NCBI GenBank assembly: GCA_963667015.2
Contig: CAXXJJ010000004.1
Location: 3,808,001 to 3,872,000, forward strand
Direction of reading: 5' to 3'
Length of the DNA: 64,000 nt
Source of the DNA: Desulfatiglandales bacterium
Lineage (GTDB): Bacteria > Desulfobacterota > DSM-4660 > Desulfatiglandales > HGW-15
Below, one piece after another: positions 1,793 to 29,605 of the stretch. Under the pieces are notes generated by a model, which saw nothing but the letters and a program-made list of their open reading frames with translations, made no database searches and was not told the DNA's origin. The stretch's first letter is position 1. Each line of letters starts with the position of its first letter. Made by a program: the position numbers and the translations under genes.

Positions 1793-3856
1793 TTAAAACG
1801 TCATCTTCAGGTTAACACCAAAGGCAGTACCGGGCATGGGAAACCCATACACCTCCTGATAATCTTTATCTAAAATATTAGTCGCATACACCCTCAGAAC
1901 TATATTTTCCGAATAGGCATGCTGGAAGCCAACATCAACAGTTGTGAAAGAATCAAGATTCATGACGTTGCCTTCGGTCTTCCTTTTACCTACAAACCGG
2001 ATATCGGATGTAATAAGCGTATTGCTGAACAAACTGTACCTTATACCAAGGTTTGCCTTATGCTTAGGCGCAATATTGATAAGAACTGCCTCGGCAAGAA
2101 TCTTTGACTGGTCATAATGGGTTTTTCTGAAGGTATAATTACCAAACAGCGTCAATTTTTCAAACAAATTGGCATTAAATTCAAGCTCTGTACCGTAAAA
2201 AATCATTTCATCCAGATTGTAGCCATAGGTGCTTGCATTGTGAAATGAGTCGCTCGAATTGGCTACAATATAGTTATCTACATCAATATAGTAAAACGCG
2301 AGTTTTGTATCCAGGTTTTTCATGGGACGATGAAACAATCCAAGATCATAATGCCAGCTTGTTTCATTATGAATTTCATCTCCCTTTTCCGTTGAGCCAA
2401 AACTGGCCCATGCTGAACGGTCTCAACAACCCGGGACATGATAATCCTTGTTTACCGACAGATAGAGCTGTGTGTCATCCGTGAACTTGTATGTAAGTGT
2501 AGACTTTGGAAGGAAAAGCCTTGTATAGATCAAATGCCTGTACTTTTCCGTTGTTCCGGGATCTGCATATGCATAGGTCCTTTCTCTGACATGTGTATAT
2601 CTCAATCCGAGAAATGCGGATAATTTTTCGCTGATGTTCCAGGTATCTTCAGCATAAAGGGCCTGCATACGCCATACATCTTCTGTTGACCCTGTTTCCA
2701 TTCTGCGCTGGTCATAACCTGTAAGAACAGAATGACCATCCCAGAAATCCATCTGGTACTGAAGTCTGCCGCCAATCTGTTTTTCCTCTCTGGCAGGGCC
2801 ACCGCTGTATAGCTGTGTCAGGGCACCACCGCTCAGAGTGTAGTAATAACTGTCTTCAGCACCGGATGTCTCATATATCTGAAACTTAAGTTTTGATTTA
2901 TCAAAAGGCTGCTCAAAGGAGAGATCAATGTGCTGCGCATGTTTATCCTTGTAATTGTCTCCACCGGGAAATGATATTGCACGGTATCTGCGGATGGTAT
3001 CCGCATCTTCAGGTACAATAGGATAGCCCGGATACCAGACATTGGAATATGTACTGTCCGGATCATTTACTACGGCATAGCCTACGTTTATCTGGGAATA
3101 TTTTATTCCCAGTGTAAGGTATCCTTCAAATGGAAAAAGATAGGAAAGCCTCCCTGAATAATCATAGCCGTCATAATCGTTATTTAAGAGATATCCGTCA
3201 GATCTTTTATAGCCATAGTTAAAGAAATAGCCGAGGTTCTTTACGCCGCCATCTACTGCTATTCTTGTTGTAAAGGTTCTGAATTTAGAAAGATCATTTA
3301 CGAAAGTTATCTTCGGCTTCAATGTATCCTTTTCTCTTCCCTTTCTGGTAATAATATTGATTATACCGCCCTGGGAATTCTCATACTGGGCCGAAGCAGC
3401 GCCACGGATAACCTCAATTTTTTCAATATCCGCACTGGTCAGGCTTGACCAGTCCACATATGTGTCCGCACCTGCGGTAGGACCGGTTATCGTCCTCCCG
3501 TCAATTGCTATTGTGAACCTGCTGTCGTCAAAACCCCTCATTAATACCATGGTCTGAGGATCTGCACCGGATGAGCCTCTCAAAACATCAATACCGGTGA
3601 GGTGCATCAGAATGTCTTCAACCCGTTCAACCGCCCCGCTCTTATCAAATGCCTCAATATCGATAACAGTTTTTGTAGGGGTAATTTTAACGGCCCCGCC
3701 ATGAAAGGCGGTAACAACTACCTCATCAAGTGTAAATTCATCCTCATTAAGGCAATCTCGATCCGGACATTCATCGTCAAACTGCCCAAAGGCAACCGGG
3801 CATGTCAGGAATAAGAGTGCACATAAGAAGAATATCAGCCTCCTAATACAATACAT
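1793..3856 (-). CDS. TonB-dependent receptor, 687 aa, with in-frame UGA at codon 478 (HVPGC-U-DRS), putative selenoprotein
   Basis: ORFs 2423..3856 and 1793..2338 share a frame and are separated only by TGA 2425-2423; TonB-box-like TLDEVVVTA, plug motif IEKIEVIRG, terminal Phe found only after read-through. Confidence 0.88.
2389..2420 (-). promoter_or_regulatory. SECIS-like hairpin after the TonB receptor UGA
   Basis: TGGGCCA-GTTT-TGGCTCA stem-loop starts 12 nt after UGA; lower stem CCGT/ACGG. Confidence 0.7.
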
Positions 3857-3880
3857 TAATAATAGCTCCTTTCTCTTTTT

Positions 3881-4837
3881 TTAATTTTCCGGCAGAAAAC
3901 TGTAATCCACTATCTTGTCTATAGATACCTTTTCCGGCAGATAGCCTATCTCCCGCATTATTGCCTGCTGGCGGTAGATGTTCTCTTCCGGTTCCCTGCC
4001 GTCACTGTATTCCCTGAGAGCAGACTTCATGGCCACCTCCATTTCCACTCCCGTATATTTTGGAATCCATTTTCTGGCTTTTTTTTCATTGGCCTTAATA
4101 TATTCAAAGGCCTTTATTAGTCCCCTTAAAAAGGCCCTCGCCTTTTCGGGATTTTTCTTCAGGTATTTATCGGTAAAAAACAATCCGCTGAAAACATACC
4201 CCGGTATTGCATCGTTAAATGATGTCAATAGCCTGCTCGCACCATGCACCTCCAGCATGGTCGCTGTAGGGTCTCAGGCAACTATTACATCAACACCCTT
4301 TGACCTTAAGGCTGCTTCGTGTTTCATGGAATCGTCAAGTTTGATTCCCTTGATTGCCCGGATATCATCTTTTTCCAGGCCGGCCTTTTTTAGTGTTTCA
4401 TTAAGAATCATGGCTGTTGTAATGGAACCGGATTCTGCGATCCTTTTCCCCTTCAGGTCCTCTATATTTTGAATATTGCTTTTCTGGTCAACATGAAGAC
4501 CGCATCTTGTGCCCTTGTGTGAGTGCCCCAGCCAGGCAACGACCTTTACAGGGATATTTCTCAAGCCTGCATGAAAGGCCCCTCCCAGGTCCAGGTGCCC
4601 GGCATCGATATCTTCATGTAATGCCGCTGCAATTATGTTGTGTTCACCAACAAGTCTGACCAGTTCAACCTTGAGGCCTTCCTTTTCCCAAAGGCCTTCT
4701 TCAAGGGCCACATACAAAGGGAGGTCATCAATACCGCGGCTGTATGTTATCTTCATGACATCATCAGCGCTCAATAAACTGGAAAAGAAAACGAGTGCTA
4801 TAAATGTAACCAGAATCGATAAATTCTTCTTTTTCAT
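3881..4837 (-). CDS. SsuA/NMT1-like ABC substrate-binding protein, 318 aa, with in-frame UGA at codon 188 (DVIVA-U-DPTAT), putative selenoprotein
   Basis: ORFs 4274..4837 and 3881..4258 share a frame and are separated only by TGA 4276-4274; signal peptide; DLKGKRIA motif; the joined length is typical for the family. Confidence 0.85.
4241..4261 (-). promoter_or_regulatory. SECIS-like hairpin after the SBP UGA
   Basis: Perfect 7-bp stem ACCATGC-TGGAGGT-GCATGGT starts 12 nt after UGA. Confidence 0.72.
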
Positions 4838-4880: not shown

Positions 4881-5657
4881 TTACGCCGATGTCTCAGCAA
4901 AAGAGGCATCCGTGTGCCATGAAAGAGCCTTTTTCTGGACCCATCTTGCTATTCTGTCCAACCCGAAACCCATAAGCGAAATTACAATAATACCGGCAAA
5001 CATCCTTTCTGTTGCAAACACCCTCTGGGCATCTATAACAAGAAACCCTATGCCCGAATCTGCAGCAAGCATCTCAACACCGACTATCGCCGTCATGGAC
5101 ATGGCTGTTGAAACTCTCATACCAGTTATAATCATAGGGAGGGCAGAGGGAATCAGAACCATTGTCCATATCTGGCGACCCCTTGCGCCAAGGGATCTTG
5201 CTGCCTGGATAAGGCGTGAATCAACTCCCTTTATCCCTGCGATGGTGTTCAGGACTATCGGGAAGAAACAGGCCTTTACTATAATGGCTGTTTTAGACCC
5301 GTTACCGATCCCGAACCATACAAACATTATGGGTACAAGGGCGAAGGTTGAGATTGGCCTGATGAGTTCAATAAGGGGATCAATGATTGTTTCACACACC
5401 CTTGACCATGCAACAAGCACCCCGATAGTAAGCCCCAGTACCGCCGCTATCAAATAGCCGCAGACAGCCCTGACAATACTTATCCCAATGTGCGGAAATA
5501 TCTCTCCGGATGCGGTCATTTCCCACAGACTCTTCAGCATGGCACTTGGTGCAGGAAAAAAGAACGGGTCGATAAGCCCACTGCGGCCAATAAGTTCAAA
5601 AATAACTAAAAGGCTTAAAGGGGAAATGAATTTTGAATACCGTTTCAGGGTGCTCAT
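4881..5657 (-). CDS. ABC transporter permease, SsuC/TauC-like
   Basis: EAA-like loop LIQAARSLGA, TM helices; ATG at 5657 overlaps the upstream stop (ATGA). Confidence 0.9.
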   Translation of the reverse strand: MSTLKRYSKFISPLSLLVIFELIGRSGLIDPFFFPAPSAMLKSLWEMTASGEIFPHIGISIVRAVCGYLIAAVLGLTIGVLVAWSRVCETIIDPLIELIRPISTFALVPIMFVWFGIGNGSKTAIIVKACFFPIVLNTIAGIKGVDSRLIQAARSLGARGRQIWTMVLIPSALPMIITGMRVSTAMSMTAIVGVEMLAADSGIGFLVIDAQRVFATERMFAGIIVISLMGFGLDRIARWVQKKALSWHTDASFAETSA

Positions 5658-6412
5658 TCCACCATTACCTCGGACCATATAATTCCCCTTATCTCTTTCT
5701 CATATTCCTTGAATTCAGGAGAAAAGAGCGTCTCCCTTATTCTCGGTCTCGGCAGATCAATCCTCATATCCGATATAATCCTGCCGGGTCTTGAACTCAT
5801 AATTACAACCCTGTCGGACAGAAAAACCGCCTCTGAAATGCTGTGAGTTACAAACAGTACAGTACACTTTTCCATCTGCCATATACGTAAAAGCTCTGCC
5901 TGGAGCATCTCCCGTGTCAGAGCGTCCAGTGCACCGAAGGGTTCGTCCATAAGCAGAACATCGGGATTATTTGCAAGTGCCCTGGCAATGGCCACCCTCT
6001 GTTTCATCCCGCCGCTCAGTTCATGGGGATACCGGTTTTCAAACCCCTGCAGGCCCACAAGGCTGATATAGTGATCAATGATTTTTTTACGTTCATGAGC
6101 AGGGACACCATTTACCCTGGGTCCGAATTCAATATTTTTTCCTACTGTCTGCCATGGAAAGAGCAGATATTCCTGAAAAACAATTGCACGTTTAGGATCA
6201 GGGCCGGTCACGGCCCTGCCATCACAATGAACTTCTCCTGATGTAAGGCTTTCGAGCCCTGCTACAATGAGAAGAAAGGTCGACTTTCCGCACCCGCTGG
6301 GGCCTATTATAGAAACAAACTCGTTGTTTCCTACAGAAAGATCCAGGTTTTCCAGTGCGACCACCTTTGCACGCCGGTTAAATTCCTTTGAGACGCCTCT
6401 GGCAACTATCAA
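5654..6412 (-). CDS. ABC transporter ATP-binding protein, SsuB/TauB-like
   Basis: Walker A GPSGCGKST, LSGGMKQR, LLMDEPFGALD. Confidence 0.93.
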   Translation of the reverse strand: MIVARGVSKEFNRRAKVVALENLDLSVGNNEFVSIIGPSGCGKSTFLLIVAGLESLTSGEVHCDGRAVTGPDPKRAIVFQEYLLFPWQTVGKNIEFGPRVNGVPAHERKKIIDHYISLVGLQGFENRYPHELSGGMKQRVAIARALANNPDVLLMDEPFGALDALTREMLQAELLRIWQMEKCTVLFVTHSISEAVFLSDRVVIMSSRPGRIISDMRIDLPRPRIRETLFSPEFKEYEKEIRGIIWSEVMVE

Positions 6413-6419: not shown

Positions 6420-7574
6420 TTATCTCCCTGCCCTTAACTGTTCCATGAAACCTTCGATTCGCAGCCTTAACTGGCCTGCATCAGACTGTGAATAATCCGT
6501 AACAATATGAAGAAAAGGCAGGCCATGTTTTTCCTTAACAAGTTCGCCAACACGATAGGATTCAATATTAAAGGTATGGCATGACTGCCATGTAAGGTCT
6601 ATTACACCGTCAATATTGAACTCACTGATCATGTAGTCTATATCATCAAACCTCTGATTATTAGGTGTCATACATGAACAGGTAACCCTTAAATAACGGT
6701 CTGCAATTGCATCAAGGGGATCCGTTTCCGTATCAATGGGGTCGTTCAGCCTTGTATATCCGCCGCAACCTTCCTGAGCCACAACAACTCCGCCCAGCTC
6801 CTCAACCATCCTTAAAACCTTATCGCATCCAAGGCTGTTTCCAAGCCCTGTCCAGAGTATTCTGGGCCTGCTCCTGTCGCAGGCATATTCCTGATTCACT
6901 AATCGCCGGTTAAGTTCATTCAATACATCCGATAATCTGGAGGTATATGTGGAACGGTCTATGGAATAACCCATTTTGGTGGTAAGAGACACCAGGTCCA
7001 GCCCCATGATTGGCGGAGGAGAAGATTTTCTGCACTGGTGGATTGCCTTTAGAAGAGCCCTTTCCCTGTTTCCCTGTTCAATTGCCTTTGAAAGCGCATC
7101 ATTCGTTATTTTCGTATCAAGCTGATCCTCAAGGAAGCATTTCATTTTTTCCACTTCACGGCGCCAGTGAGCCTGTGCTTCCTGATCATCAGGCTTTTGA
7201 GGAAGATCCATCACATGCATGGGTTTGTACCTTGATAAAAGCTCATACATCTTTTTTCTTCCGTCACATGTGGTTTCGCTTACGATACAGTCTGCAAGGG
7301 GGAAAATAGGACAGGAATTATTGACAGCCCTTCCGTATGTAGCTTTCACCATTGGGCATTGATCCGCGGGGAGAACCTGTTCGGCCGCCTCAATTGGCCC
7401 CTCGGTCGTCCCGCACAGACCGACAGTAACAGCGCCTGCGGCCCAGGCAATTTCTCTGGGAAAATAGGAACAGAGAGAACCTACAACTTTTTTGCCCTCA
7501 TCCTTTGCCATTTCAAGCTGCTGAGCGAAATCCGTCTTAACTTCATCAATTTTTTCTTTTACAGTCAGGTCCAT
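6420..7574 (-). CDS. Double-cubane-cluster protein (DCCP)-like reductase, 2-hydroxyacyl-CoA dehydratase family
   Basis: LCSYFP, GLCG, QCPMVK, CPIF, ETTCDGRKK, EGCGG, CSCMTPN, WQSCHTF, TDYSQSD. Confidence 0.85.
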   Translation of the reverse strand: MDLTVKEKIDEVKTDFAQQLEMAKDEGKKVVGSLCSYFPREIAWAAGAVTVGLCGTTEGPIEAAEQVLPADQCPMVKATYGRAVNNSCPIFPLADCIVSETTCDGRKKMYELLSRYKPMHVMDLPQKPDDQEAQAHWRREVEKMKCFLEDQLDTKITNDALSKAIEQGNRERALLKAIHQCRKSSPPPIMGLDLVSLTTKMGYSIDRSTYTSRLSDVLNELNRRLVNQEYACDRSRPRILWTGLGNSLGCDKVLRMVEELGGVVVAQEGCGGYTRLNDPIDTETDPLDAIADRYLRVTCSCMTPNNQRFDDIDYMISEFNIDGVIDLTWQSCHTFNIESYRVGELVKEKHGLPFLHIVTDYSQSDAGQLRLRIEGFMEQLRAGR

Positions 7575-7658
7575 GAACAATCCTCGCTTCCACATTCTTT
7601 TTCAGAGACAACTGGTATCTATATTTTTGAAGTGCACACTATTCAGGAAAAGTCAATG

Positions 7659-7710
7659 TGTCAAACTGGATTTTCCTATATATGACAAGCTTATGGTCGG
7701 GCAAACCGAT
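7659..7710 (-). promoter_or_regulatory. Shared operator/promoter, site 1 (DCCP-ABC-TonB operon)
   Basis: ATCGGTTTGCCCGAC-N16-ATAGGAAAATCCAGT-TTGACA. Confidence 0.8.
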
Positions 7711-7840: not shown

Positions 7841-7892
7841 AAAGGATTTTCCTATATATAATACAAAATTCATCGCTTATACCAGTTTGACA
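7841..7892 (+). promoter_or_regulatory. Shared operator/promoter, site 2 (porin-yedE operon)
   Basis: AAAGGATTTTCCTAT-N16-ATCGCTTATACCAGT-TTGACA. Confidence 0.8.
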
Positions 7893-8002
7893 TACCTAGC
7901 TTTCTTAACTAGATCTTATTTACTTTTAAGGATTAAACATAACTTAATCAAAAGAATTAAAAATCGATGAATGATTAATCTTTTTTCCTAAAGGAGGAGA
8001 AA

Positions 8003-9232
8003 ATGAACAGATTTGGCTTTTCTAAAAAATGGTTAATCTGCTTTTTTACTTTGCTGACATTTGGATTATTCTTATCAGTAAATGCATCCGGCGAGGAATC
8101 TTTAGGTGCCTCCATTAAAAATGGAAAGGTAAACGGGGAACTTAAAATCTGGTACCAGACAAATGACAATGATCTCAGTGGCAACAGCTTTCTTGACAAG
8201 GAAAACAGCATATTTGATGCCGGACTAAATCTTGGCTATACAACCGCCGGCTTCAAGGGTTTTAATATTGGGATCAATTTTTATGCAATAAATGACCTGG
8301 GAGCCTACGACAATTTTGCAAATAGCAGTATCCACGGTGTTAACCACAGTGAGACGACATCATGGCTTGGAGAGGCCTTCATAGCCTATAACAAAGAAAA
8401 TACGACAGTAAAACTCGGAAGGCAGAATATAAAATCCCCGCTTATTAACAGCGACGGCTGGGCAGTTTTTCCCAACAGCTTTGAGGCAATATTCTTCCAA
8501 AATAAAAGTTTAAGCGATACCAGTATTGTTGCATCCTATGTCACAAGGGAAAGAACCCTCAAGAGCCATACCTTTGAGGATTTTGTAGATGATGGGGGTT
8601 TTATGCTGGGTGCAGAAAACAAATTCTTTAAGGATCTTGCCCTGAGCGGATATTATTACCATATAAAGGGAGCTTCAGATATAAACTCAATTTATCTTCA
8701 GGCCGTTACAGAATATAAAAAGATAAATGTTTCAACACAGTATATGTTCTTTGACTCGGATGCAGCCAATTCCGACTCAACAAATGCTGTTGGAGTCCTT
8801 GTGTCAACTAAGATAGGAAATGTTGACCTGTCGGGTGCAGTAAGTACTGTTGATAAAGGCACATTAAATGCCGCAAAATTTTCAGATAACGGAATAAAGA
8901 CACCTCTCTACACTGCATCCATTTGTGCTGACGGTGATATTGCCTCTGCCACTGATACCGATGCCCTCAAAGTTTCAATAGGGTTTTCGCCAATGGAAAA
9001 ACTCAGCATAACCGGCACATTCGGCTACTATGACCATGGCAGCCACTCCTCAGCCAGTCCGAACAATGCGTCAACATCCGCAGAACTTGTTCTTAAATAT
9101 ACAGGGTTTAAAAACATGACGATCTTTGCAGCCTATGTAAACTCGGATCACAACGGAGTAGGCGGATGGAAAGGATGCACCTCCGAGGACTCACTTAATA
9201 CTCTAAGGATATGGGCCAGCTATAAATTCTAG
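8003..9232 (+). CDS. Outer-membrane porin, OprD-like
   Basis: Signal peptide, amphipathic beta strands, KLGRQ..SPL motif, C-terminal YKF. Confidence 0.75.
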   Translation: MNRFGFSKKWLICFFTLLTFGLFLSVNASGEESLGASIKNGKVNGELKIWYQTNDNDLSGNSFLDKENSIFDAGLNLGYTTAGFKGFNIGINFYAINDLGAYDNFANSSIHGVNHSETTSWLGEAFIAYNKENTTVKLGRQNIKSPLINSDGWAVFPNSFEAIFFQNKSLSDTSIVASYVTRERTLKSHTFEDFVDDGGFMLGAENKFFKDLALSGYYYHIKGASDINSIYLQAVTEYKKINVSTQYMFFDSDAANSDSTNAVGVLVSTKIGNVDLSGAVSTVDKGTLNAAKFSDNGIKTPLYTASICADGDIASATDTDALKVSIGFSPMEKLSITGTFGYYDHGSHSSASPNNASTSAELVLKYTGFKNMTIFAAYVNSDHNGVGGWKGCTSEDSLNTLRIWASYKF

Positions 9233-9272: not shown

Positions 9273-10361
9273 ATGTCACAGATAAAAAATTTTTTTGCAA
9301 CCAGATGGGGAATTATAAGTGTGGGTGCCTTTATAGGTATTCTGGCAGCACTGCTCCAGAAATGGGGAAATCCCGGAAATATGGGAATTTGTGTTGCCTG
9401 TTTTAACAGGGATATTGCAGGCGCTGTCGGGCTTCACAGGGCCGCTGTAGTTCAGTATATGAGACCAGAAATCATCGGTTTTGTTATCGGCTCCCTGGCG
9501 GCTGCACTGATCTTTAATGAATACAAATCAAGGGCAGGATCTGCTCCAATAGTAAGGTTTTTTTTAGGGGCATTTGCAATGATAGGGGCGCTTGTCTTTC
9601 TGGGCTGTCCATGGCGCGGCCTGCTCAGGCTTGCAGGCGGGGACTGGAATGCAATACTGGGCTTAGCCGGCCTGGTGGTGGGTATCTGGATCGGGACCCT
9701 TTTTCTCAAAAACGGCTATAACCTTGGAAGGAGCCAAAAGACATATGCCTCGGTAGGTCTTCTCATGCCAATACTTATGGCAGGATTTCTTGCGCTCATG
9801 TTTATATTTCCACAGGTTGAAGGCCAGGATAAAAACGATATACTCTTTTACAGCCTGAAAGGCCCCGGCGCAATGCATGCCCCGCTCATTGTTGCTCTTG
9901 TTGTAGGTTTTTTTGTCGGCTTTATTGCACAGAGAAGCCGTTTCTGCACAATGGGTGCGTTTCGGGATCTTTTGCTTTTCAGGCAGGCCCATCTGCTGCT
10001 TGGTATTATATCCCTTGTTATAGCCGCATTTGTTGTAAACCTTATAGTAGGCCAGTTTAAACCCGGATTTGAAGGTCAACCCGTTGCCCATACAATGCAT
10101 ATATGGAATTTTGCAGGGATGGTTCTTGCAGGTCTGGCATTCGCACTCGCCGGAGGATGTCCCGGACGCCAGCTATTTCTGGCAGGAGAAGGAGACGGTG
10201 ATGCAGCAGTCTTCGTATTCGGGATGATCACGGGTGCCGCATTTGCTCATAATTTCGGACTGGCCAGTTCACCGAAAGGTGTTGGGGCACACGGGATCGC
10301 GGCTGTAATAATAGGTTTAATAGTCTGCCTGTATATTGGCTTTACAATGAGACAAAAATAA
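9273..10361 (+). CDS. yedE: YedE family putative selenium/sulfur transporter
   Basis: GNPGNMGICVACF, FLGCPWR, QRSRFC, LAGGCPGRQL; multiple TM helices. Confidence 0.88.
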   Translation: MSQIKNFFATRWGIISVGAFIGILAALLQKWGNPGNMGICVACFNRDIAGAVGLHRAAVVQYMRPEIIGFVIGSLAAALIFNEYKSRAGSAPIVRFFLGAFAMIGALVFLGCPWRGLLRLAGGDWNAILGLAGLVVGIWIGTLFLKNGYNLGRSQKTYASVGLLMPILMAGFLALMFIFPQVEGQDKNDILFYSLKGPGAMHAPLIVALVVGFFVGFIAQRSRFCTMGAFRDLLLFRQAHLLLGIISLVIAAFVVNLIVGQFKPGFEGQPVAHTMHIWNFAGMVLAGLAFALAGGCPGRQLFLAGEGDGDAAVFVFGMITGAAFAHNFGLASSPKGVGAHGIAAVIIGLIVCLYIGFTMRQK

Positions 10362-10378: not shown

Positions 10379-10597
10379 ATGGGAACTACAATAGATGCAA
10401 GAGGTTTGAGTTGTCCTCAGCCTGTACTTATGACGCTCGACAATATCAAGAAACAGAATAATGGAGAAATGGAGATTCTTGTTGATACCGAAACCTCAAA
10501 AGAAAATGTAAGCAGGGCTGCTACCAGCAAAGGGTGGCAGGTAACAGATGTAAAAGAAGAAGACGAGTGTTTCAGAATCTCAATAAGCAAGGGTTGA
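10379..10597 (+). CDS. TusA/SirA-like sulfur/selenium carrier protein
   Basis: IDARGLSCPQPV motif. Confidence 0.9.
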   Translation: MGTTIDARGLSCPQPVLMTLDNIKKQNNGEMEILVDTETSKENVSRAATSKGWQVTDVKEEDECFRISISKG

Positions 10598-10599
10598 TT

Positions 10600-11151
10600 T
10601 TGGGTATTTTAAAAGCTCTAAAGAAAAAAATATCAGGGCCTGAAAAAATAACAAAAAATGATCTGGGGCTCTTTGTCTTTGAAAACACCAGCGAGGTAAT
10701 CCGAGCAGAAAAGATATTAAAGGCGAATGGCTGGGAAATAAGAGTAATGGGTCCTCCGCCCGAGATAAGGAGCGGGTGTGACCTTGTTATTGAGTTCCCC
10801 CTGATAGAAGAACTCAACATCATCAGGCTGCTTAATGATAAAAATCTCACACCCATTGAGGTCGTTCCGGTTAACAGTCCACTGTTAAAACCGGTTAATC
10901 TATTTCAGGTAAAGGATTTCGGAAAGCACCTCATGGTGAGGGCAGCCAACATGAAACTGACCATTGACAAGGAAACCCTGATGATAGTCAATATATCCGG
11001 AGGGGGCTGCCCTGACGTCCCCTATCTGGCCCACGAGATGGTGGGAAAAAATTTATCAGACGCCCCCGATCCGGAAGATATCGGGCATACCCTGTGCGGG
11101 TATGCCCTTAAACTCGCCTATGAGGAGATAAAAAAACAATGCTTGCAGTAG
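10600..11151 (+). CDS. DUF3343-domain putative Se/S carrier protein
   Basis: VIRAEKILK, PPPEIRSGCD, SGGGCPDVP, TLCGY; probable TTG start at 10600. Confidence 0.7.
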   Translation: MGILKALKKKISGPEKITKNDLGLFVFENTSEVIRAEKILKANGWEIRVMGPPPEIRSGCDLVIEFPLIEELNIIRLLNDKNLTPIEVVPVNSPLLKPVNLFQVKDFGKHLMVRAANMKLTIDKETLMIVNISGGGCPDVPYLAHEMVGKNLSDAPDPEDIGHTLCGYALKLAYEEIKKQCLQ

Positions 11152-12002
11152 TGGGGACTGTCCCGATAAAGGGTTTTCCTCTTGTAGCAGGAGAAGTGAC
11201 CCTTGAGGATTATTCTATTGTTATAGAAGGACACAAGGTTCCGGTAAACCGCGGCACCCCGGCATTGATAGGGGCATCAATAGAAACCGCCCGGGTAAAG
11301 GGCGATGATAAGATGTTCGCATTTCTTGTGGGGGATATCGGGCTTGGAGACGGAAGCAGGAAACTTTATAAATATCTTTCCGAAAATTTAAGCAAATATG
11401 ATTTTGATGTGATTACCTTTCATTATCTTCAGCCTGATACTGACTGGCATAACAGGGTCCTGTTTTCTTTGGAAGATATGAAAAAGAGACCGTTTCTTAT
11501 TGCTGATGCAGGATTTATGTATGCAGCAAAAATGAGCGGGCAGGCTTCTGAATATGACCTTTTTACCCCGGATGCAGGAGAACTGGCCTTTCTTGCAGAT
11601 GAAGAAGCCCCTCATCCCTTTTATACAAGGGGATTTATCCTCCACGAGGACAATAATACCCCGGACCTGATAAGCCGCGCCTACAGCCATGATAATGCGG
11701 CAAAATATCTCCTGGTAAAAGGAAAAAAAGATTATATTGCAAATAACAAAGGGATTATAGGCCATGTTGAAGAACCCTCGGAAGAGACAATGGAGGCAAT
11801 AGGCGGAACAGGCGATACCCTGACCGGTATAGTCTCTTCCCTTATAGCATCAGGCATGGAAACAGTTGAGGCATCCATATCAGCGGCCAGGATAAACAGG
11901 CTGGCAGGTCATTATACAAAACCTGACCCGTCCACGCAGATCATGGATATCATCAGAAATATTTCCTCTTCCGCAGAGACGGCCGATCGGGCAAAGGTAT
12001 AA
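11139..12002 (+). CDS. Ribokinase-fold, NAD(P)H-hydrate dehydratase-like protein
   Basis: IADAG, FTPDAGEL, LLVKG, IGGTGDTLTG. Confidence 0.72.
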   Translation: MLAVVGTVPIKGFPLVAGEVTLEDYSIVIEGHKVPVNRGTPALIGASIETARVKGDDKMFAFLVGDIGLGDGSRKLYKYLSENLSKYDFDVITFHYLQPDTDWHNRVLFSLEDMKKRPFLIADAGFMYAAKMSGQASEYDLFTPDAGELAFLADEEAPHPFYTRGFILHEDNNTPDLISRAYSHDNAAKYLLVKGKKDYIANNKGIIGHVEEPSEETMEAIGGTGDTLTGIVSSLIASGMETVEASISAARINRLAGHYTKPDPSTQIMDIIRNISSSAETADRAKV

Positions 12003-12006
12003 ATAT

Positions 12007-12231
12007 ATGGAAAAAAATAAAATAAAAATTTCCCCGGATATGACCGTGCTCGATATTGTATCAAACAATAAAAACACAATTGAAATATTCCAAGGCTATG
12101 ATGAACAGGCAGGTGAATGCATATGCTGCGAATCCCTTTTTGAAACCCTTGACAAGGTAGCGGAGAAATATGGTATTGACCATAATAAATTATTAAATGA
12201 CCTTAATGCCGTGTGTCCTGAAGACACTTGA
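12007..12231 (+). CDS. Small DUF1858-like Cys-rich protein
   Basis: ISPDMTVLDIV...CICCESLFETL. Confidence 0.6.
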   Translation: MEKNKIKISPDMTVLDIVSNNKNTIEIFQGYDEQAGECICCESLFETLDKVAEKYGIDHNKLLNDLNAVCPEDT

Positions 12232-12263
12232 TCGGGAGTCGCTACAGGGGATGGAAAAGCAGA

Positions 12264-13070
12264 ATGAAAGATAATAAGATTTTTTTTGCAGGGATTGATA
12301 TCGGTTCCATGACCACAAAGTGTGTAATCATGGGTAACAACGGGGTAACAGGCAGTATTGTCTTACCTACAGATTCAGCACCAAAGGTTTCCGGTGTAAA
12401 TGCGCTGGAAACAGTATTGACTAAAATCGGCATAGACAGATCATCTGTTTCTTATATTGTAGGAACCGGTTACGGCAGGATATCCCTTGACCTTTTTGAC
12501 CATACGGCAACAGAACTTACATGCCATGCAAAGGGCGTAATGCATGTGAACCGTGATGTTTATGGAATCATTGATATCGGCGGCCAGGACAGTAAGGCCA
12601 TAAAGCTTAAACCAGACGGCACCATAATGGATTTTGTTTTAAATGACAGGTGCGCTGCAGGTACCGGTCGTTTTCTTGAGGTAATGGCCAATGCCCTTAA
12701 ACTGGATTTAGATGAATTTGGCGAACTGTACGAAAAGTCCGATAGTCCCTGCCCCATAAACAGTACCTGTATTGTATTTGCCGAATCAGAGGTAATATCA
12801 CTTTCCGCACAGGGTGAATCAAAGACCGACATAGCGGCAGGCCTTCATCAGAGCATTGCAAAACGAGTTGGGAATATGGCAAAAAGACTCGGCATAAAAG
12901 AGAAGATAGCGTTTGTCGGCGGGGTGGCAAAAAACAATGGTATGAGACGCGCGCTTGAGGATTACATGGGGATAAAATTTGTTTCCCTTTCAGGCGATCC
13001 CCAGATTACCGGGGCATTAGGAGCAGCAGTCATTGCACGGAATCAGTTTGTTAAGAGACATGAAAACTAA
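12264..13070 (+). CDS. ATP-dependent [4Fe-4S] activase (acyl-CoA dehydratase activase/DCCP-reductase type)
   Basis: GIDIGS, GTGYGR, DIGGQDSK, NDRCAAGTGRFLE, CIVFAESE, GGVAKN. Confidence 0.9.
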   Translation: MKDNKIFFAGIDIGSMTTKCVIMGNNGVTGSIVLPTDSAPKVSGVNALETVLTKIGIDRSSVSYIVGTGYGRISLDLFDHTATELTCHAKGVMHVNRDVYGIIDIGGQDSKAIKLKPDGTIMDFVLNDRCAAGTGRFLEVMANALKLDLDEFGELYEKSDSPCPINSTCIVFAESEVISLSAQGESKTDIAAGLHQSIAKRVGNMAKRLGIKEKIAFVGGVAKNNGMRRALEDYMGIKFVSLSGDPQITGALGAAVIARNQFVKRHEN

Positions 13071-18310: not shown

Positions 18311-19117
18311 TCAGCCCGAATATTTTTTTGAAATAGCCTCAATTACCGCCCTGGCAATTATTTTTGCCTGAGGTGTAATTTCAAAGCAGATGTCCCTGTC
18401 ATTACCGGGATGAATGTCCCCAAGTTTTTGCCCCTTCCTGACACTGGCCGGAGTCCGTATAAGTCCCCAGACAATACCTGAAATCGGCGAAAGCAGTTTT
18501 ATGTCATCTACATACCCTATTATCCCGCCTTTTTTGACACTGTCTCCAATATCCTTTATCCCGGAGAGGGTGCCTGACCCCGGACTGGTTAAAAGCCTTT
18601 CAAGTGACTTACCCAGTACCTCGGTAGGTATTCCTGTATGCTCTTCAGCACATCCTTCCTCGATAACCTTTCCAAGTTCATGGATGTTCGGGTTTGTTTC
18701 AATAACATAATGGACATCTTTTCCGGCATAAAACCCGGGACCGAGGGCAATAACAAGGGGAGCCTGATCTATATGTGTGCCGGTATTCCTCTTTGCAAGG
18801 ATGCTGTCAACGATTATGTCGGGACAGATACTTTTAATAAGCTCATTATCCGGGGTGATAAGGAGGGGGATGACACCCTTTGACCACAGGGCATTTACAG
18901 AGTCAATCGATGGATCAGCCTTTTCGCAGACAATGCCCTTTACCTCTTTTCTTTGTTCAATTGCAGCTTCGCAAAAACATACACCCCTTCTTTCTGCCAG
19001 GGGATAAGGGAGGTCAGTCATTATAAGTCTTGTGAATCCATTGGAGAAAAGCTCATGAGCAACAGCGCTTGCCTTTTCTCCTGCACCCTTGATTAAAATA
19101 GTAAGTAATTTATTCAT
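18311..19117 (-). CDS. yqeB: Selenium-dependent molybdenum hydroxylase system protein, YqeB family
   Basis: ILIKGAGEKASAVA, DSILAKRNTGT, IALGPGFYAG, HTGIP. Confidence 0.82.
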   Translation of the reverse strand: MNKLLTILIKGAGEKASAVAHELFSNGFTRLIMTDLPYPLAERRGVCFCEAAIEQRKEVKGIVCEKADPSIDSVNALWSKGVIPLLITPDNELIKSICPDIIVDSILAKRNTGTHIDQAPLVIALGPGFYAGKDVHYVIETNPNIHELGKVIEEGCAEEHTGIPTEVLGKSLERLLTSPGSGTLSGIKDIGDSVKKGGIIGYVDDIKLLSPISGIVWGLIRTPASVRKGQKLGDIHPGNDRDICFEITPQAKIIARAVIEAISKKYSG

Positions 19118-21943: not shown

Positions 21944-22663
21944 ATGGCTGATGAAAAAACCAACGTTAACCGCAGAAGCTTTCTTAAGAATGCGGGCGTC
22001 ATCATCGGCGGCAGCGCTATCGGAGCCGCGGGTATGACTTTAAGACCTGAAATGGCACAGGCCGCAGACGCTGTTAAATCAGTGCCAAAAACCGTTACAC
22101 AGTTCCGTTGCCCGGTGTGTAATAAAAACTTCAGCAGCTTTGCTGAATTGAAGCATCATTTTCAGACCGATCACCCGGAAAATGTTATGCCCACCACCAC
22201 AAAGCTCAATATCAACGGAGAGGATTGCGAGGTCCTGATAGAGCCCCACTGGACTCTTCAGCGTACACTCCAGTTCAAGCTGGGCCTGAGCGGCGCCAAA
22301 CACATGTGCGGCCGGGGTGCATGCGGGTCATGTACTGTAATCATGGATGGCAGGGCAATCCTGTCATGTACTACTCTGGCAGTTGAGTGTGAAGGAAAAG
22401 CAATCCAGACCGTAGAAGGTATTGCGGCTGATCCCAAATGGAGACCCCTCATTGATTCTTACTGTAAGTGGGATGCCATGCAGTGCGGTTACTGTACACC
22501 CGGGATGCTGGTTTCCGCGAAAAACCTTCTTGATAAAACACCCAATCCTACAGCGGAAGACTGTAAACAGGCCCTCGCTGGCAACCTGTGCAGCTGCGGC
22601 ACATATCACCGACACCCCACAGCTATTTTGGAAGCTGCCCAGACAATAAAAGGAGGTGCATAA
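21944..22663 (+). CDS. Molybdenum hydroxylase small (2Fe-2S) subunit with Tat signal and C2H2 finger
   Basis: NRRSFLK; CPVC..HFQTDH; CGRGACGSC, QCGYCTPG, GNLCSC. Confidence 0.9.
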   Translation: MADEKTNVNRRSFLKNAGVIIGGSAIGAAGMTLRPEMAQAADAVKSVPKTVTQFRCPVCNKNFSSFAELKHHFQTDHPENVMPTTTKLNINGEDCEVLIEPHWTLQRTLQFKLGLSGAKHMCGRGACGSCTVIMDGRAILSCTTLAVECEGKAIQTVEGIAADPKWRPLIDSYCKWDAMQCGYCTPGMLVSAKNLLDKTPNPTAEDCKQALAGNLCSCGTYHRHPTAILEAAQTIKGGA

Positions 22664-22664
22664 C

Positions 22665-25022
22665 ATGGCAGATTTAACTGTAAACGGAGACAGAAAAGAA
22701 TTCAAGGTAGTAGGGAAACCACATCTGCCCGGTAAACTGTCATGGGCAGTAGCAACCGGTGTGGCAAAATTCGGAGCAGACTATGTGATTCCGGATATGG
22801 TTGAAGCAAAATTCATGCGCAGCCCCTATGCCCATGCCAAGATAAAAAGCTATAACCTGAAAAAGGCCCTGGCTGTTCCAGGTGTTGTGGACATAGTCAC
22901 ATATGACGATCCGGATATGCAGAAATTTAAACTCAGCGGCCTTATGGGCGGTTCACCATATCCTTTTCTTGACAGTGTTGCCCATGAGGAAAACGGGGTA
23001 GTCGGATTTATAGTCGTTGCGGAAAACGAGGATATCTGCGAAGAGGTGTTAAGGCAGATTGACGTGGAATGGGAAGAACTGCCAAATGTAACTGACATTA
23101 AAAAAGGAAGAGAGAATGATGCCCCGGTAATACGTCCCGAGGATCGAAGCGGCCCCGGTGGATTCAGCAGAGGACCCAGCAATAATCCGCCTAAAAAGGG
23201 AAATGTCGCCTTTTCCAATCAGAACCAGGGTGATGTGGAACAGGGTTTTAAAGAGGCTGACTACATTGTTGAGTACGACCTTAATATGCCTACATACGCA
23301 TCAGCCTCACCAAATCCTCACGGATCAGTAGCGTGGTGGTTTGACGATCCCTACCTGGGCAGGGACAATATCCACATAGAAGGCGCTGTCTGGCATGCCA
23401 GCGGCGGTAAAAATGCAATCGCGCAGCTTTACGGCCTGCCTCCGGAAAAGACGGTACAGGAAGGTCTCTTCCAGGGCGGCAAATACTGCGACTGGACAAT
23501 ACGCAGATCACAGAAAATCACTCCCTTTCTTTCAAAAAGGGTGGGAAGGCCTGTACGCTGTATAAACGAACGCAAGGACACCTTTGACTTTATGGTCTCC
23601 CAGCGTTTTATGCACATGAAGGTCGGATTTAAAAAGGACGGCACAATAACCGCCTTTGATGACTTCTCAATAGCTGACGGCGGAACCCCGGGCAATTCAT
23701 TCTTCGGCACCTCGGGCGACCAGGGCTACAGCCCATACATTGGCACAAAATGTAAGAACATAAGACAGAATATGGATATTGTAGACAGCAACCGCGGTCT
23801 TATGGCCTTCAGCTCACAGTTCTGTCCCTTTAACTGGGATTCAGTCACTATGGCAATACATATGATTGCCGAAAAACTCGGAAAAGACCCCATTGATATC
23901 GCAAGAATCAATCTTCACGGCCCTGACGGTCAGGATGACAACAGACCTGTTCCAAGCTTTGACGCATGCATTGAAGCCGGAAAAAAAATGATGAACTGGA
24001 AATGGCATAAAAACGGCGCAAAGAGGCTTAAAGACGGAAGACTCCACGGCGCCGGCTTCAGATATCAGATGTGCCCTAGACATTCAATGGGTTCGGATTT
24101 TCACGCTGTACTCGAGCTTCGGGACGGTGTAGTGCACCTGCCGATACAGGGCCCCCATGCAGGAGTATTTTCCGTTGAAGGCGTTGCCATGATTGCGGCT
24201 GAAGAACTCGGCCTCAGGTTCGAGGATATCAGCATTGATTACGATCCCAATGCAATGTTCGTATCCATCAGCGGAGGGGCAGACGGGCTTGTAAATACCG
24301 GATGGGTTTTAAAACAATGCGCTCACAAATTAAGGAAGGAAATTTTTGAGGCAGCTATTGCCGAGGCCGAAAAACCTGCCCCCATGGGCTTCGGCTTTGG
24401 ACCACCTCGAAAGGCTGCTCCAAATCCGTTGAAGGGCAAAAAACCCGAAGACCTGGATATAATAGACGGAATGATCGTGCTTAAGTCTGACAACACAAAA
24501 GGAGTACCGCTTAAGAGCCTTACATCAAATGTATATGCGACATTTGCCGGCTGTGCGCCTAATCCAGTATGGCCAAGCAAGTACGATCTTTTAAACACCC
24601 TGTACTGTGAAGTAGCCGTGGATGAAGAAACCGGTGAAGTAGAAGTCCTGAGATACGAAGCGGCTGTTGACTCCGGCAAGGTAATAAGGCTTACCTCCCT
24701 TGAAAGTCAGCTTAACCAGGTTGCGATCTTCAGCCAGGGATGCCAGCTCTATGAGGACTATTTCTATGATCCTAAAACAGGTATTAAACTCAACCATAAT
24801 TATATTGAGTACAAAAAAGCGGGTATGCTGGATGTAACGGACGTTAAGGAGCCGGAATTGATAGAGACCCGCGCCGGCAACGGGGTATACGGTGCAAATG
24901 GCATAAGCCATTCAATGGCGAACACGCACCTTATTATCTGTGCTATCTACAACGCCATTGGCAAATGGGTTGATCCGCCTGCTACACCGGACAAGGTTCT
25001 CGCGGCACTGGGCAAGATATAA
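22665..25022 (+). CDS. Xanthine dehydrogenase-family molybdopterin-binding subunit
   Basis: RSPYAHAKI, EVAVDEETGEV, IYNAIG..PATPDKVL. Confidence 0.88.
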   Translation: MADLTVNGDRKEFKVVGKPHLPGKLSWAVATGVAKFGADYVIPDMVEAKFMRSPYAHAKIKSYNLKKALAVPGVVDIVTYDDPDMQKFKLSGLMGGSPYPFLDSVAHEENGVVGFIVVAENEDICEEVLRQIDVEWEELPNVTDIKKGRENDAPVIRPEDRSGPGGFSRGPSNNPPKKGNVAFSNQNQGDVEQGFKEADYIVEYDLNMPTYASASPNPHGSVAWWFDDPYLGRDNIHIEGAVWHASGGKNAIAQLYGLPPEKTVQEGLFQGGKYCDWTIRRSQKITPFLSKRVGRPVRCINERKDTFDFMVSQRFMHMKVGFKKDGTITAFDDFSIADGGTPGNSFFGTSGDQGYSPYIGTKCKNIRQNMDIVDSNRGLMAFSSQFCPFNWDSVTMAIHMIAEKLGKDPIDIARINLHGPDGQDDNRPVPSFDACIEAGKKMMNWKWHKNGAKRLKDGRLHGAGFRYQMCPRHSMGSDFHAVLELRDGVVHLPIQGPHAGVFSVEGVAMIAAEELGLRFEDISIDYDPNAMFVSISGGADGLVNTGWVLKQCAHKLRKEIFEAAIAEAEKPAPMGFGFGPPRKAAPNPLKGKKPEDLDIIDGMIVLKSDNTKGVPLKSLTSNVYATFAGCAPNPVWPSKYDLLNTLYCEVAVDEETGEVEVLRYEAAVDSGKVIRLTSLESQLNQVAIFSQGCQLYEDYFYDPKTGIKLNHNYIEYKKAGMLDVTDVKEPELIETRAGNGVYGANGISHSMANTHLIICAIYNAIGKWVDPPATPDKVLAALGKI

Positions 25023-25105
25023 TAAAAGCAAGGTTCAAGGTTTAAGGCTTAAGGTTCAGGGTAAAGGCCTTAAATCTAAACCAAAAAGCTAACAAGGAGA
25101 AAAAA

Positions 25106-26082
25106 ATGAAGCCATTTAATCATACAAATGCAACATCAATTGCAGAAATCAAAACAGCCCTTGCCGACGGTAAAACTACGCTTATTGCAGGCGGGACTGA
25201 TCTATTAGGGACACTCAAGGATAATATCCTTCGCGACTACCCTTCTACAGTAATTAATATTAAAACCGTTCCCGGGCTTGATTATATCAAGGAAGAAAAG
25301 GGAATACTCAAAATAGGAGCAACAACACGTCTGGCAGATATTGCGGCTGATCCCACTGTGCAGAAGAAATACACTGCACTGGCCCAGGCAGCGTCACGTG
25401 TAGCTTCACCCCATATCCGGGACATGGGTACCATAGCTGGAAATATTGCACAGCTTCACAGGTGCTGGTATTTTCGCAAACCGGAAAACCGCTTTGACTG
25501 TAAACGAAAGGGAGGATCAACATGCTTTGCCATGAGCGGTGACAACCGTTACCACTCAATCTTTGGTGCAGAAGGCGGGTGCCTTGCGGTTCATCCCAGT
25601 GATACAGCTCCCGCACTTATAGCACTCAACGCAAAGATAGTTACGGACAGCAGGACAATTGAGGCGGATAATTTTTTTGAGGTAAAACAGCCTGGGAATA
25701 CGGTTCTTGCGAAGGATGAAATAATCACTGAAATTCAGATCCCTGAGCCTCCAAAGGGCTGTAAAAGTGCATTTATCAAATTTGCCTCGCAGGGAAGAGC
25801 GTCCGTAAATCCATTGACTTCCCCATTGTAAACTGTGCGGTAATGGTCGGTGGCAAAGAACCAAGGATTTGTCTGAACGCCGTTGCACCCAGGCCTTATC
25901 GTGCAACAAAGGCAGAAGAAGCCATCGCAGGGAAGAGCGTTAAAAAGCTCAATGAAAAGCTGGCTGATGCAGCAGGGGAGGCGGCTGTTTCCGAGGTAAA
26001 ATCATTTCCCAGTGCAGCCCAGTTTAAAAAACAGATAGCTAAAACCATTGTAAAACGGGCAATTCTTATGGCGACAGCCTGA
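25106..26082 (+). pseudogene. FAD-binding subunit of the Mo hydroxylase, frameshifted near 25787-25802
   Basis: IAGGTDL, IRDMGTIAGN, HPSDTAPAL; the expected KFA-x-RKSIDFPIVNCAV continues in another frame. Confidence 0.8.
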
Positions 26083-26159
26083 TAAGGATGATGCAATATT
26101 TAGACTAGGGAAGAACAGATCGTTCTTCCCTGTTGTTTTATATGAATAAGGAGGAAACG

Positions 26160-26477
26160 ATGTTAACAGTAACAGACAAGGCAAACGAAAAGATCACAGA
26201 TTTTCTTAAGGCCCAGAAAGACCCGTCATGCATAAGGTTTTTCCTCTCAGAAGGCGGCTGCTCAGGGCCTTCTATTGGAATGGCTCTTGATGAGCCGTCA
26301 GAAAATGATGAGGTTATAAAAGACAACGGGGTAACCTACTTAATTGACAAAATGCTGCTGGAAAAGGCAAAACCGATAAGTGTTGACTTTATTGAATCTG
26401 AGACCGGTTCGGGTTTTTCAATCTCCTCCAGTTTACCAAAGGGAACAGGGTGCAGCTCTTGCTCAAGCTGCTCCTGA
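26160..26477 (+). CDS. IscA/HesB-like protein, Cys form (GGCSGPSIGMALDE)
   Basis: RBS AGGAGG; family motif; C-terminal CSSCSSC. Confidence 0.85.
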   Translation: MLTVTDKANEKITDFLKAQKDPSCIRFFLSEGGCSGPSIGMALDEPSENDEVIKDNGVTYLIDKMLLEKAKPISVDFIESETGSGFSISSSLPKGTGCSSCSSCS

Positions 26478-27935: not shown

Positions 27936-27987
27936 ACCGGCTTTTCCGGTACTACATAGTCTTTTTATCGATATTTCCAGTTTGACA
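27936..27987 (+). promoter_or_regulatory. Shared operator/promoter, site 4 (UshA-like cytochrome)
   Basis: ACCGGCTTTTCCGGT-N16-ATCGATATTTCCAGT-TTGACA. Confidence 0.8.
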
Positions 27988-28246
27988 CACAAGAGGATTT
28001 ATTGAAATTATAGGCACATTCACAATCAAGGGTCGTGATGTGCTTGTCCGAAGACGGTAAGAGCTTCAGCCGCATAGTAGAAAGCAAAGACGCTCAGGGC
28101 AATGATATCAGGGTTATTCAGTTTTTTGAAAAGCAGTAAAGCCGTTTGTCACGGTTGTTCCCTTTAAAATCAATTCAATTGCCTGCCTGCAATCATTACA
28201 GGCATTGCGGCGCAGGCGCATTTAATGCATATTCCGGGAGGCTAAA

Positions 28247-29605
28247 ATGAAGAAAATATCAGTTTATATCCTTATTCCACTGCTTGCGGCAGTCATCCTT
28301 TCAACCTTATCTCATACAGAAGATTCAAATGCGGCTGATAACCCGGAGATCACCATTGTCTACAGCAGTAATGTTCTGGGTTATTATCAGCCATGCGGCT
28401 GCAGTGAAGGCGAACAGCTTGGCGGATTGTACAAAAGGTCCACATACCTTAACAATTTTAGAAAAGAACATGGCGAGGTTATCATAGTCGATTCCGGTGA
28501 TCTGCTAAATGAGAATGAAGATCTTTCCGACAAAGTACTTGAATCGGCAAAACTTAAAGCTAAGCTCATAGCTCAGATATACAATACAACAGGAATCGAT
28601 GCAGTGGCTGTCGGTGAACTGGACCTGGTTTTAGGTATTGATTTTCTTAAAGAGCTGCAGGGAAAATATAATTTCCCTTTCATTTCCGCCAACCTGGTTG
28701 ATGAGAAGAACATCCCCTTTTTTAAGCCCTACATTATTAAAAAAATAAACGGAAAGAATGTTGGTATATTCGGGCTTATAGGAAGCAGTTCCGAGATGGG
28801 TTCGAAAATAGAAAAGCTTACAGGCGGTAAAGCAAAGGTTCTGGATACTTTAAAGACCGCAGAAACCATTATTAATGAACTGTCAGGGAAAGTCGATTAC
28901 ATGGTTGCAGTTGCTCATCAGCGAACCAACAGAAACTGGGTAATGGCAAAAAAGGTACCGGGAATAGATTTGATTGTCGTAGGTCATGATAAGCTCAAAA
29001 CAGAGAAACCAAGTAAGGCCGGTAATTCCCTTATTGTACAGGCAGGAGAAAAGGCCCAGCACCTTGGAGTGCTGGAGGTTACAATAAATGATTCTCAAAC
29101 TGAGCATAACATGCTGGTCCCCCTTGGCAACAAAATAGAAGATGATCAGAAGATCAAGGATATGATAGGTGAGTATGAACACAGTGTCGCATCTATGTAT
29201 AATAACCAGGTTCAGGAAAATGCCGCCACTAAAAATGTTGTATCAAGAGTTGCTGTGTGTGAAGCCTGCCATGAAGATCAGGTAAAGGCATGGGACGCCA
29301 CGGACCATGCCCATGCATACGATACGCTGGTCCAAAAATCAAAGCAGCTTGACCCTGACTGCCTGAACTGTCACACAACCCGTTTCGAGCAGCCCGAAGG
29401 CTTTACTATGCAACTTAAGCAGATGGAACTGGCAAATGTTCAGTGCGAAAATTGTCATGGGTTTGCAAAGGAACACCTGAATGACGGAACGCCGATTCCT
29501 GTGGCAAAGCCTGGTATGGATCTATGCCTTAAATGCCACAGCCCCTATCGGTCACCTGATTTTGAAAAGAATGCTGCTGAGATTTTTGAGAAAATAAAAC
29601 ACTAG
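28247..29605 (+). CDS. UshA-like metallophosphoesterase domain fused to a tetraheme cytochrome c; Cys form (PCGCS)
   Basis: QPCGCS..LGG, VDSGDL, ISANL, IVVGH; CEACH, CLNCH, CENCH, CLKCH. Confidence 0.85.
   Translation: MKKISVYILIPLLAAVILSTLSHTEDSNAADNPEITIVYSSNVLGYYQPCGCSEGEQLGGLYKRSTYLNNFRKEHGEVIIVDSGDLLNENEDLSDKVLESAKLKAKLIAQIYNTTGIDAVAVGELDLVLGIDFLKELQGKYNFPFISANLVDEKNIPFFKPYIIKKINGKNVGIFGLIGSSSEMGSKIEKLTGGKAKVLDTLKTAETIINELSGKVDYMVAVAHQRTNRNWVMAKKVPGIDLIVVGHDKLKTEKPSKAGNSLIVQAGEKAQHLGVLEVTINDSQTEHNMLVPLGNKIEDDQKIKDMIGEYEHSVASMYNNQVQENAATKNVVSRVAVCEACHEDQVKAWDATDHAHAYDTLVQKSKQLDPDCLNCHTTRFEQPEGFTMQLKQMELANVQCENCHGFAKEHLNDGTPIPVAKPGMDLCLKCHSPYRSPDFEKNAAEIFEKIKH

Follow-up and report, generated by a model that had tools for sequence, protein, structure and literature searches.

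A TonB receptor operon with predicted selenocysteine in a Desulfatiglandales genome as a candidate system for selenium uptake

The window (the whole stretch of 64,000 nucleotides of Desulfatiglandales DNA analysed here) carries on its reverse strand a five-gene operon, in the order double-cubane reductase (DCCP), ABC ATPase, ABC permease, substrate-binding protein and TonB-dependent receptor, the receptor coming last. Two of the five genes contain an in-frame TGA codon.

1793..3856, reverse strand: TonB-dependent receptor of the CU motif type, 687 aa with predicted Sec478 (NF049946, Pfam, structure model)
2393..2410, reverse strand: SECIS-like hairpin following the receptor TGA by 12 nt, with a 7-bp stem and a GTTT loop
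2423..2428, reverse strand: codons TGT TGA for Cys477 and predicted Sec478, placed by the model in extracellular loop 7, directly after strand 13
3881..4837, reverse strand: ABC substrate-binding protein of the SsuA/NMT1 fold, 318 aa, predicted Sec188 in VIVAUDP (Pfam, alignments)
4241..4261, reverse strand: SECIS-like hairpin with a 7-bp stem, following the binding-protein TGA by 12 nt
4274..4276, reverse strand: in-frame TGA of the binding protein, in the column of SaoX T-C/U-D-P and of SsuA W185
4881..5657, reverse strand: ABC permease, SsuC/TauC/SaoP-like, with Gly and not Cys or Sec at the SaoP gate
5654..6412, reverse strand: ABC ATPase, SaoA/NrtD-like, below cut-offs
6420..7574, reverse strand: double-cubane [8Fe-9S] cluster reductase, DCCP (NF040772, 472 bits for a cut-off of 350)

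With translation table 11, the receptor is split into two frames, 2423..3856 (477 aa) and 1793..2338 (181 aa). The first-pass annotation had proposed that one TGA directly after a Cys codon interrupts an otherwise intact receptor, and a single frame of 687 codons was indeed found at 1793..3856 when the lone TGA at 2423-2425 (U478), immediately 3′ of TGT (C477), is read through. As also proposed, the 28 codons between the TGA and the next called frame are open (84 nt without a stop), and a 7 bp hairpin with a G-first loop, GTTT, begins 12 nt after the TGA; its stem, TGGGCCA/TGGCTCA, contains one G-U pair. The local peptide reads NKDYHVPGC-U-DRSAW, so that the Cys-Sec pair follows the barrel Pro motif (PGCU, 475-478). 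Among the 82 closest homologues, the receptor's own record counted, 79 end exactly at C477; of the other three, one is full-length with Cys-Cys and two are partial. Cys-Cys was seen in 3 rows among 90 alignable cluster representatives, and C477 in 68 of 68 aligned rows. In a survey of 401 genomes of the phylum and 209 of the class, CU receptors above cut-off were found as 10 genes in 9 genomes, each with one TGA, at the column next to C477, and 6 more distant receptors of the PCPU type have a TGA at the identical column. Down to about 28% identity, the codon in the U478 column was always TGA, with homology continuing beyond it.

The binding-protein gene, 24 nt upstream of the receptor gene, presents the same picture. 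Of 81 homologous records 80 stop at residue 187, meaning that the family is still annotated as truncated, and one reads TCDP; all 11 full-length genomic copies contain one TGA. An isolated fragment of such a gene, ending just past the TGA, lies in G338 (L050, C1:1448669). The protein scores below every NCBIfam cut-off (SaoX, NF040735, 61.8 for 300; SsuA, 117 for 163.5), and by this sequence measure it is an uncatalogued family of predicted Sec proteins. Its fold neighbours are SsuA, TauA, and the thiamine/HMP and PQQ binders. By our own residue count on the alignment, U188 falls in the column of W185 of Xanthomonas SsuA, a residue described as facing the pocket (PMC3839906, in the part on that site), and Sec188 is accordingly predicted, by analogy, to face the ligand pocket. 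The same column aligns with the Cys/Sec of T-x-D-P in SaoX, published as ATUDP. The N-terminal Cys and the CC motif of SaoX are absent, GIDDLP and YVFSG standing at those columns, and an invariant C112 lies away from the SaoX Cys columns.

Taken alone, the two hairpins are modest: a z of −1.86 for the receptor, with 10 of 200 shuffles folding equally well, and −1.5 for the binding protein. Under a SECIS-like rule of our own, written after the sites had been inspected, 17 of 17 distinct receptor sites pass (3.0 expected from synonymous shuffles), one of them, L006, by way of a different hairpin; so do 11 of 11 distinct binding-protein sites (1.1 expected). Among 781 ordinary TGA stops, 17 pass. 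The window yielded no additional convincing Sec gene, the 3 other passes sitting in frames that look non-coding. The source genome encodes SelA, SelB, SelD and tRNA-Sec. Both TGAs are unchanged in the spanning contigs of runs X1, X3 and X5, of which X3 and X5 are two further studies, each with 11 other differences over 2.3 kb, and X1 is possibly the source; run X11 covers pieces of the region. Conservation, Cys homologues, SECIS-like hairpins and Sec machinery together support read-through, and the receptor TGA is likely read as selenocysteine; on the evidence of its homologues, the binding-protein TGA likely codes for selenocysteine as well.

The receptor matches the NCBIfam model NF049946, TonB_dep_CU, with 1099.8 bits for a cut-off of 700, over positions 4-682 of a 683-position profile. 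This model has three sisters that are also Sec receptors, NF049944 (PUIUD), NF049945 (FCYXU) and NF049947 (PCPU). A TonB-dependent selenoprotein was reported by deep-Sep in 2025 (PMC12013277, in the portion concerned), and a table of a 2026 review names the FCYXU type alone among TonB Sec receptors (PMC13188914). Sec in an outer-membrane barrel, first thought an unusual single case, thus has curated precedents, and by its sequence the receptor alone is an ordinary new member of an already catalogued family. A near-cut-off receptor of the FCYXU type, at C3:123399 (819 of 825), has no TGA.

Pfam recognizes Plug and barrel domains, and the AlphaFold2 model (pLDDT 88) shows an N-terminal plug and a 22-strand barrel with an aromatic last residue, as in TonB-dependent transporters; its Foldseek matches are TonB receptors without exception. 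The best sequence match among solved structures is YncD/PqqU (E 4e-14). The model places the Cys-Sec pair immediately past strand 13 by our own strand count, in extracellular loop 7, in line with the surface loop suggested at first; it is the sole conserved extracellular chalcogen pair. No conserved Met track or plug Cys was found in the receptor alignment. A second Cys pair, C30 and C35 (window 3752..3769, reverse strand), lies in the periplasmic N-terminal tail, as CxxC or CxxxxC in most homologues (43 of the 50 that were parsed, the other 32 of the 82 being unparsed). It was set aside as a functional element, since the tail is acidic and of low confidence and several homologues do not have the pair.

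Within the operon, the ATG of the permease (5657) and the stop of the ATPase overlap as ATGA, and the DCCP start is likely at 7574, the longest frame beginning at 7595. The cluster Cys residues of the DCCP align with those of the solved DCCP 7yyl; a regular expression for the published Cys spacing did not match. The five-gene order is kept in the window and in L033, L031, L034, L027 and L028, two more loci (L032, L003) being cut by contig ends, and DCCP, ATPase and permease precede the binding protein in 8 of 8 loci of sufficient length. Of 11 genomes with the binding protein 10 also have the receptor (one of them partial), the exception being G206, and all 9 genomes with a receptor above cut-off have the binding protein. 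There is none near the second receptor copy of G242 (L030) or the sub-cut-off receptor of G552. The permease gate is Gly in 10 of 10 loci; in two SAO loci it is Cys or a stop at the Sec position. With Rfam, neither a riboswitch nor a leader was detected: window 1-14000 yielded 4 chance matches below threshold, and the 8 loci scanned gave a single tRNA.

The operon genes of G338 and G533 form part of a longer island, together with a second DCCP and an activase, with ExbB/ExbD/TonB, and with both a Tat-type Mo/W enzyme and an acidic repeat protein. The acidic repeat protein (about 600 aa; L027:10468-12273, homologues in L028, L029, L030, L034, L035 and L036) has no Pfam or NCBIfam match and always adjoins TonB/ExbBD genes near CU receptors; none was found in G000 with the L027 query. 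The Tat-type Mo/W-bisPGD enzyme (L027:14235-16418, also L029, L035, L036 and L030) has acetylene hydratase as its best solved match, is accompanied in some loci by NapG/NapH-like genes or a multi-rhodanese, and could prepare the cargo in the periplasm.

Upstream of the operon, a promoter motif is shared with a divergent operon of selenium-related genes and with other genes of the window.

7657..7710, reverse strand: promoter motif, two boxes 31 bp apart, presumably of LysR type, then CCAGTTTGACA, ahead of the operon
7841..7894, forward strand: second motif copy, preceding porin-yedE, the divergent operon
8003..9232, forward strand: Opr-family porin-like protein, below cut-off
9273..10361, forward strand: YedE, putative selenium transporter (TIGR04112, 493.7 bits for a cut-off of 200)
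10379..10597, forward strand: TusA/SirA-like sulfurtransferase (Pfam)
10534..11151, forward strand: DUF3343 putative Se/S carrier (PF11823)
11139..12002, forward strand: YjeF/carbohydrate-kinase-fold protein (family profiles)
12228..13070, forward strand: ATP-dependent activase of the HgdC/BadFG type (TIGR00241, 260.7 bits for a cut-off of 125.4), likely the partner of the operon's DCCP
27936..27989, forward strand: motif copy, preceding the UshA-like gene in its Cys form (28247..29605)
36527..36580, forward strand: motif copy, preceding a second DCCP gene (36643..37920)

Only in the genus of the window is the yedE cluster found next to the receptor, and an adjacency confined to one genus was rejected as evidence for selenium on its own. 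The motif block, which is common to six upstream regions, was followed with a matrix built from four orthologous sites, the window's own site being left out. It gave 9 sites above 20 bits in the 7.2-Mb genome, and 12 column-shuffled matrices gave 0. Seven of these sites precede this operon, porin-yedE, yedF, two other DCCP genes, the Cys-form UshA-like gene and a periplasmic-binding-like ORF; for the remaining 2 the target is not clear. The yedF site is about 1.1 kb from a LysR_Sec_metab gene (275 bits for a cut-off of 250). We took the boxes as LysR-type from their shape, and by this shape and the proximity of that gene we infer that the motif may be tied to the LysR_Se regulator. The periplasmic-binding-like ORF (L074:3194-4060, G000 C1:2769193) is of Tat type, contains WSCGG, looks ModA-like by eye and has no NCBIfam match.

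Untrained sites were detected ahead of receptor operons in L029 (28.5 bits), L035 (38.5) and L036 (40.2). The motif is absent near the CU-receptor loci L030 and L028 (the L028 contig begins close upstream), reaches only 15 bits at G206, and was found at 0 of 6 PCPU-receptor loci and 0 of 5 Co/Ni-type receptor loci of the source genome. A strict pattern, written after the sites had been inspected, gave 9 matches in three of five genomes, 4 of them previously known, and none in G242 and G034. One more, in L076, likewise known before, precedes masked DNA. In G338 the new matches stand before selD, before porin-yedE and before a TIM-barrel gene; in G549 the new match precedes yedF, and in G553 the UshA-like gene. 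Of the UshA-like pair in the source genome, the Cys copy has a motif of 31.7 bits and the Sec copy scores −4.8. None of 19 other Sec-candidate genes, many of which may be operon-internal, has the motif within 600 bp, nor was it found at the Cys-form HesB gene or at selD of the source genome. A generic sigma-70 scan stayed at chance level (29 for 26.9 expected).

Under adequate Se, the archaeal LysR_Se regulator HrsM represses Cys isoforms; upon Se depletion, yedE rises (passages of PMC11097638 and PMC5322559). In Slackia, a dehydratase-family subunit and an activase are linked to yedE, yedF and LysR_Se (PMC5322559, in the passage on that genus). Given this behaviour, and the motif on yedE, on yedF, on selD in one relative and, of the UshA-like pair, on the Cys copy alone, we infer that the shared motif marks a selenium-limitation regulon.

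Other loci of the window and the genome touch on the same families. The Cys-form HesB (26133..26477) and UshA-like (28247..29605) genes each have a TGA-bearing paralogue, at C4:3051140 and C4:2273568, so that the window resembles a selenium-backup island. YqeB, a selenium-dependent Mo cofactor gene over cut-off (18311..19117, reverse strand), diverges from a xanthine-dehydrogenase-like cluster (21944..25831, forward strand), and a weaker motif copy of 19-24 bits lies by these genes, at 19971. A third DCCP-like gene (29669..30808, reverse strand), with a motif copy near 30953, has an internal TGA in a stretch that looks frame-shifted, probably degeneration or an assembly error and not Sec. Elsewhere, a MerB/SaoL-like protein (L055:1258-2019, reverse strand; G000 C4 near 1505600) has two in-frame TGAs (YGAU, DSFU), falls below the SaoL cut-off and has no NCBIfam match at 1e-30. 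TonB-receptor loci (L066-L070; G000 C1, C3 and C4) contain three further DCCP-like/activase pairs, adjoining CobN chelatases, DUF4198, TP-methylase and cobalamin genes.

Taking these data together, we hold it somewhat probable that the operon scavenges and imports selenium, which would be released by reduction in the cytoplasm. A selenium-bearing species, be it reduced or organic Se or an oxyanion, would be caught on the receptor Cys-Sec, where the first-pass annotation had suggested the capture of a thiophilic ligand; the bond would be Se-Se or Se-S. TonB would draw this species into the periplasm. The binding protein would then receive the cargo on its Sec and pass it to the ABC transporter, the ATP-driven DCCP would free selenide for SelD, and a regulator of the LysR_Se/HrsM type would turn the operon on in selenium limitation. 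The cargo is taken as selenium rather than a metal because the promoter motif is common to selenium genes. The fuller version, a dedicated import route spanning the envelope, in which the Cys-Sec loop and the Sec binding protein relay cargo, under a LysR_Se starvation regulon, to a DCCP whose natural job is to free selenide, is plausible, with somewhat less than an even chance of being right. DCCPs track SelD in 955 of 970 cases (10.1101/2022.07.06.499078, in the part on co-occurrence). For yedE itself, the deletion results given in PMC11097638 or PMC5322559 for Methanococcus indicate no clear role in uptake.

That the TGA is a true stop (split gene or pseudogene), a sequencing error or a case of Trp read-through seems to us very improbable. 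It is true that the operon's ATPase ends in a genuine TGA stop, that SsuA-type proteins carry Trp at the TGA column of the binding protein, and that the hairpins alone reach z values of just −1.9 and −1.5. However, the same TGA persists at the same column in distant relatives, full-length close homologues show Cys and never Trp, the codon is identical in contigs of three studies, and a barrel cut after strand 13 of 22 would, on the model, be unable to close. Sequencing error, pseudogene and TGA as Trp were thus rejected on column conservation, Cys homologues and unchanged contigs. More weight attaches to an uptake in which Sec would ligate the cargo, either a soft metal or a metal complex (Co, Ni, Cu, a Mo/W thio-anion or an organomercurial), an organometallic Gram-negative route resembling SAO in which the DCCP would release or reduce the metal, and in which the motif would tie the operon to Se supply only because two of its parts need Sec. 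We consider it rather unlikely. The PCPU sisters, with Sec at the identical column, have tetrapyrrole-methylase genes as neighbours in 6 of 6 loci and also lie beside DUF4198 and FmdE genes, and three other DCCP-like genes of the source genome lie in Co/Ni/corrinoid receptor loci, with activases, CobN chelatases and cobalamin genes; Sec and DCCP chemistry is therefore tied to metals too, which speaks against the selenium reading. CU dipeptides mark metal-handling selenoproteins (SaoL, SaoB and HgcA; 10.1101/2022.07.06.499078, in part), OprC is a TonB receptor that takes bare soft metal through a Cys site (PMC8610252, in the part on copper), and the Tat-type Mo/W enzyme is part of the island in other lineages. 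Two further points count against selenium: an importer that needs Sec would be most difficult to produce at the very time when selenium runs short, and G206 has the inner module without a CU receptor. But the binding protein has the SsuA/TauA fold and not that of BtuF/FecB, the receptor has neither a conserved Met track nor a plug Cys, Rfam found no metal riboswitch in window 1-14000 or 8 loci, and the motif is carried by selenium genes without Sec and by a Cys isoform, with 0 of the 19 other Sec candidates (many perhaps operon-internal) having it within 600 bp.

The import of an organosulfur compound or other small organic substrate, or of a cofactor for the DCCP, with Sec as a reactive thiol substitute, appears less probable still. 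A comparable pair for PQQ is the TonB receptor PqqU with PqqT, a binder of the SsuA fold. The YncD/PqqU match of the receptor and the fold neighbours of the binding protein go in this direction, as does the position of Sec where SsuA has a Trp packing the alkane chain. These matches are, however, weak (<25% identity) and generic, and a motif common to yedE, yedF and selD is left unexplained. We retain selenium import as the preferred reading. The operon bears on two questions: whether a dedicated Se transporter exists, as, according to a passage of a 2024 paper, no selenium species has a known transmembrane transporter dedicated to it (PMC11097638); and what the natural substrate of double-cubane proteins is, the preprint leaving both this and the reason for their co-occurrence with SelD unexplained where it treats them (10.1101/2022.07.06.499078). 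It offers for this purpose one soluble protein for ligand identification and one promoter motif with a measurable response.

In the literature searched, no description of the operon of the CU-type receptor or of its promoter motif was found, and neither 'TonB' nor 'substrate-binding' occurs in the main text of BSepDB. At the protein level the receptor is identical in kind to NF049946, a model that names no cargo or gene context. Among the closest known systems is SAO, with which the operon shares Sec-bearing ABC uptake parts, an SsuA-type ATPase and permease, a link to double-cubane proteins, and Sec at the SaoX UxP column. It differs from this nine-gene cassette by the absence of SaoB, L, T, C and E, by a binding protein that remains at 61.8 of 300 on SaoX and has no CC motif, by its permease gate, and by possessing an outer-membrane Sec receptor and a DCCP as first gene. 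An assignment to SAO/SaoX was therefore rejected: SaoX is below cut-off, SaoB, SaoL and SaoT are absent from the operon, and the gate is Gly. Genome-wide, there was no SaoX at 1e-40, SaoL reached just 41 of 140 bits, elsewhere than in the operon, and a SaoB search, run without a positive control, was blank. 'TonB' is nowhere in the text of the SAO preprint (10.1101/2022.07.06.499078), whose supplements may bear on the breadth of SaoX. With the LysR_Se/HrsM regulon the operon and its surroundings have in common the gene families YedE, YedF and DUF3343, the regulator family, present in the source genome, and the motif, found here on a Cys isoform and on yedE and yedF; the passages concerned in PMC5322559 and PMC11097638 give no bacterial binding motif, TonB receptor or Sec-bearing ABC importer. 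The copper receptor OprC resembles ours as a TonB receptor with a sulfur-type ligand on its outer face, but it uses CxxxM-HxM and a Met track, whereas the CU receptor has only the Cys-Sec of loop 7 (PMC8610252, in the part on the binding site). We conclude that, as a system, the operon is a variant, found in Gram-negatives, of uptake assisted by Sec; its binding protein is an uncatalogued, predicted Sec protein, and the regulon to which it belongs is a putative selenium regulon.
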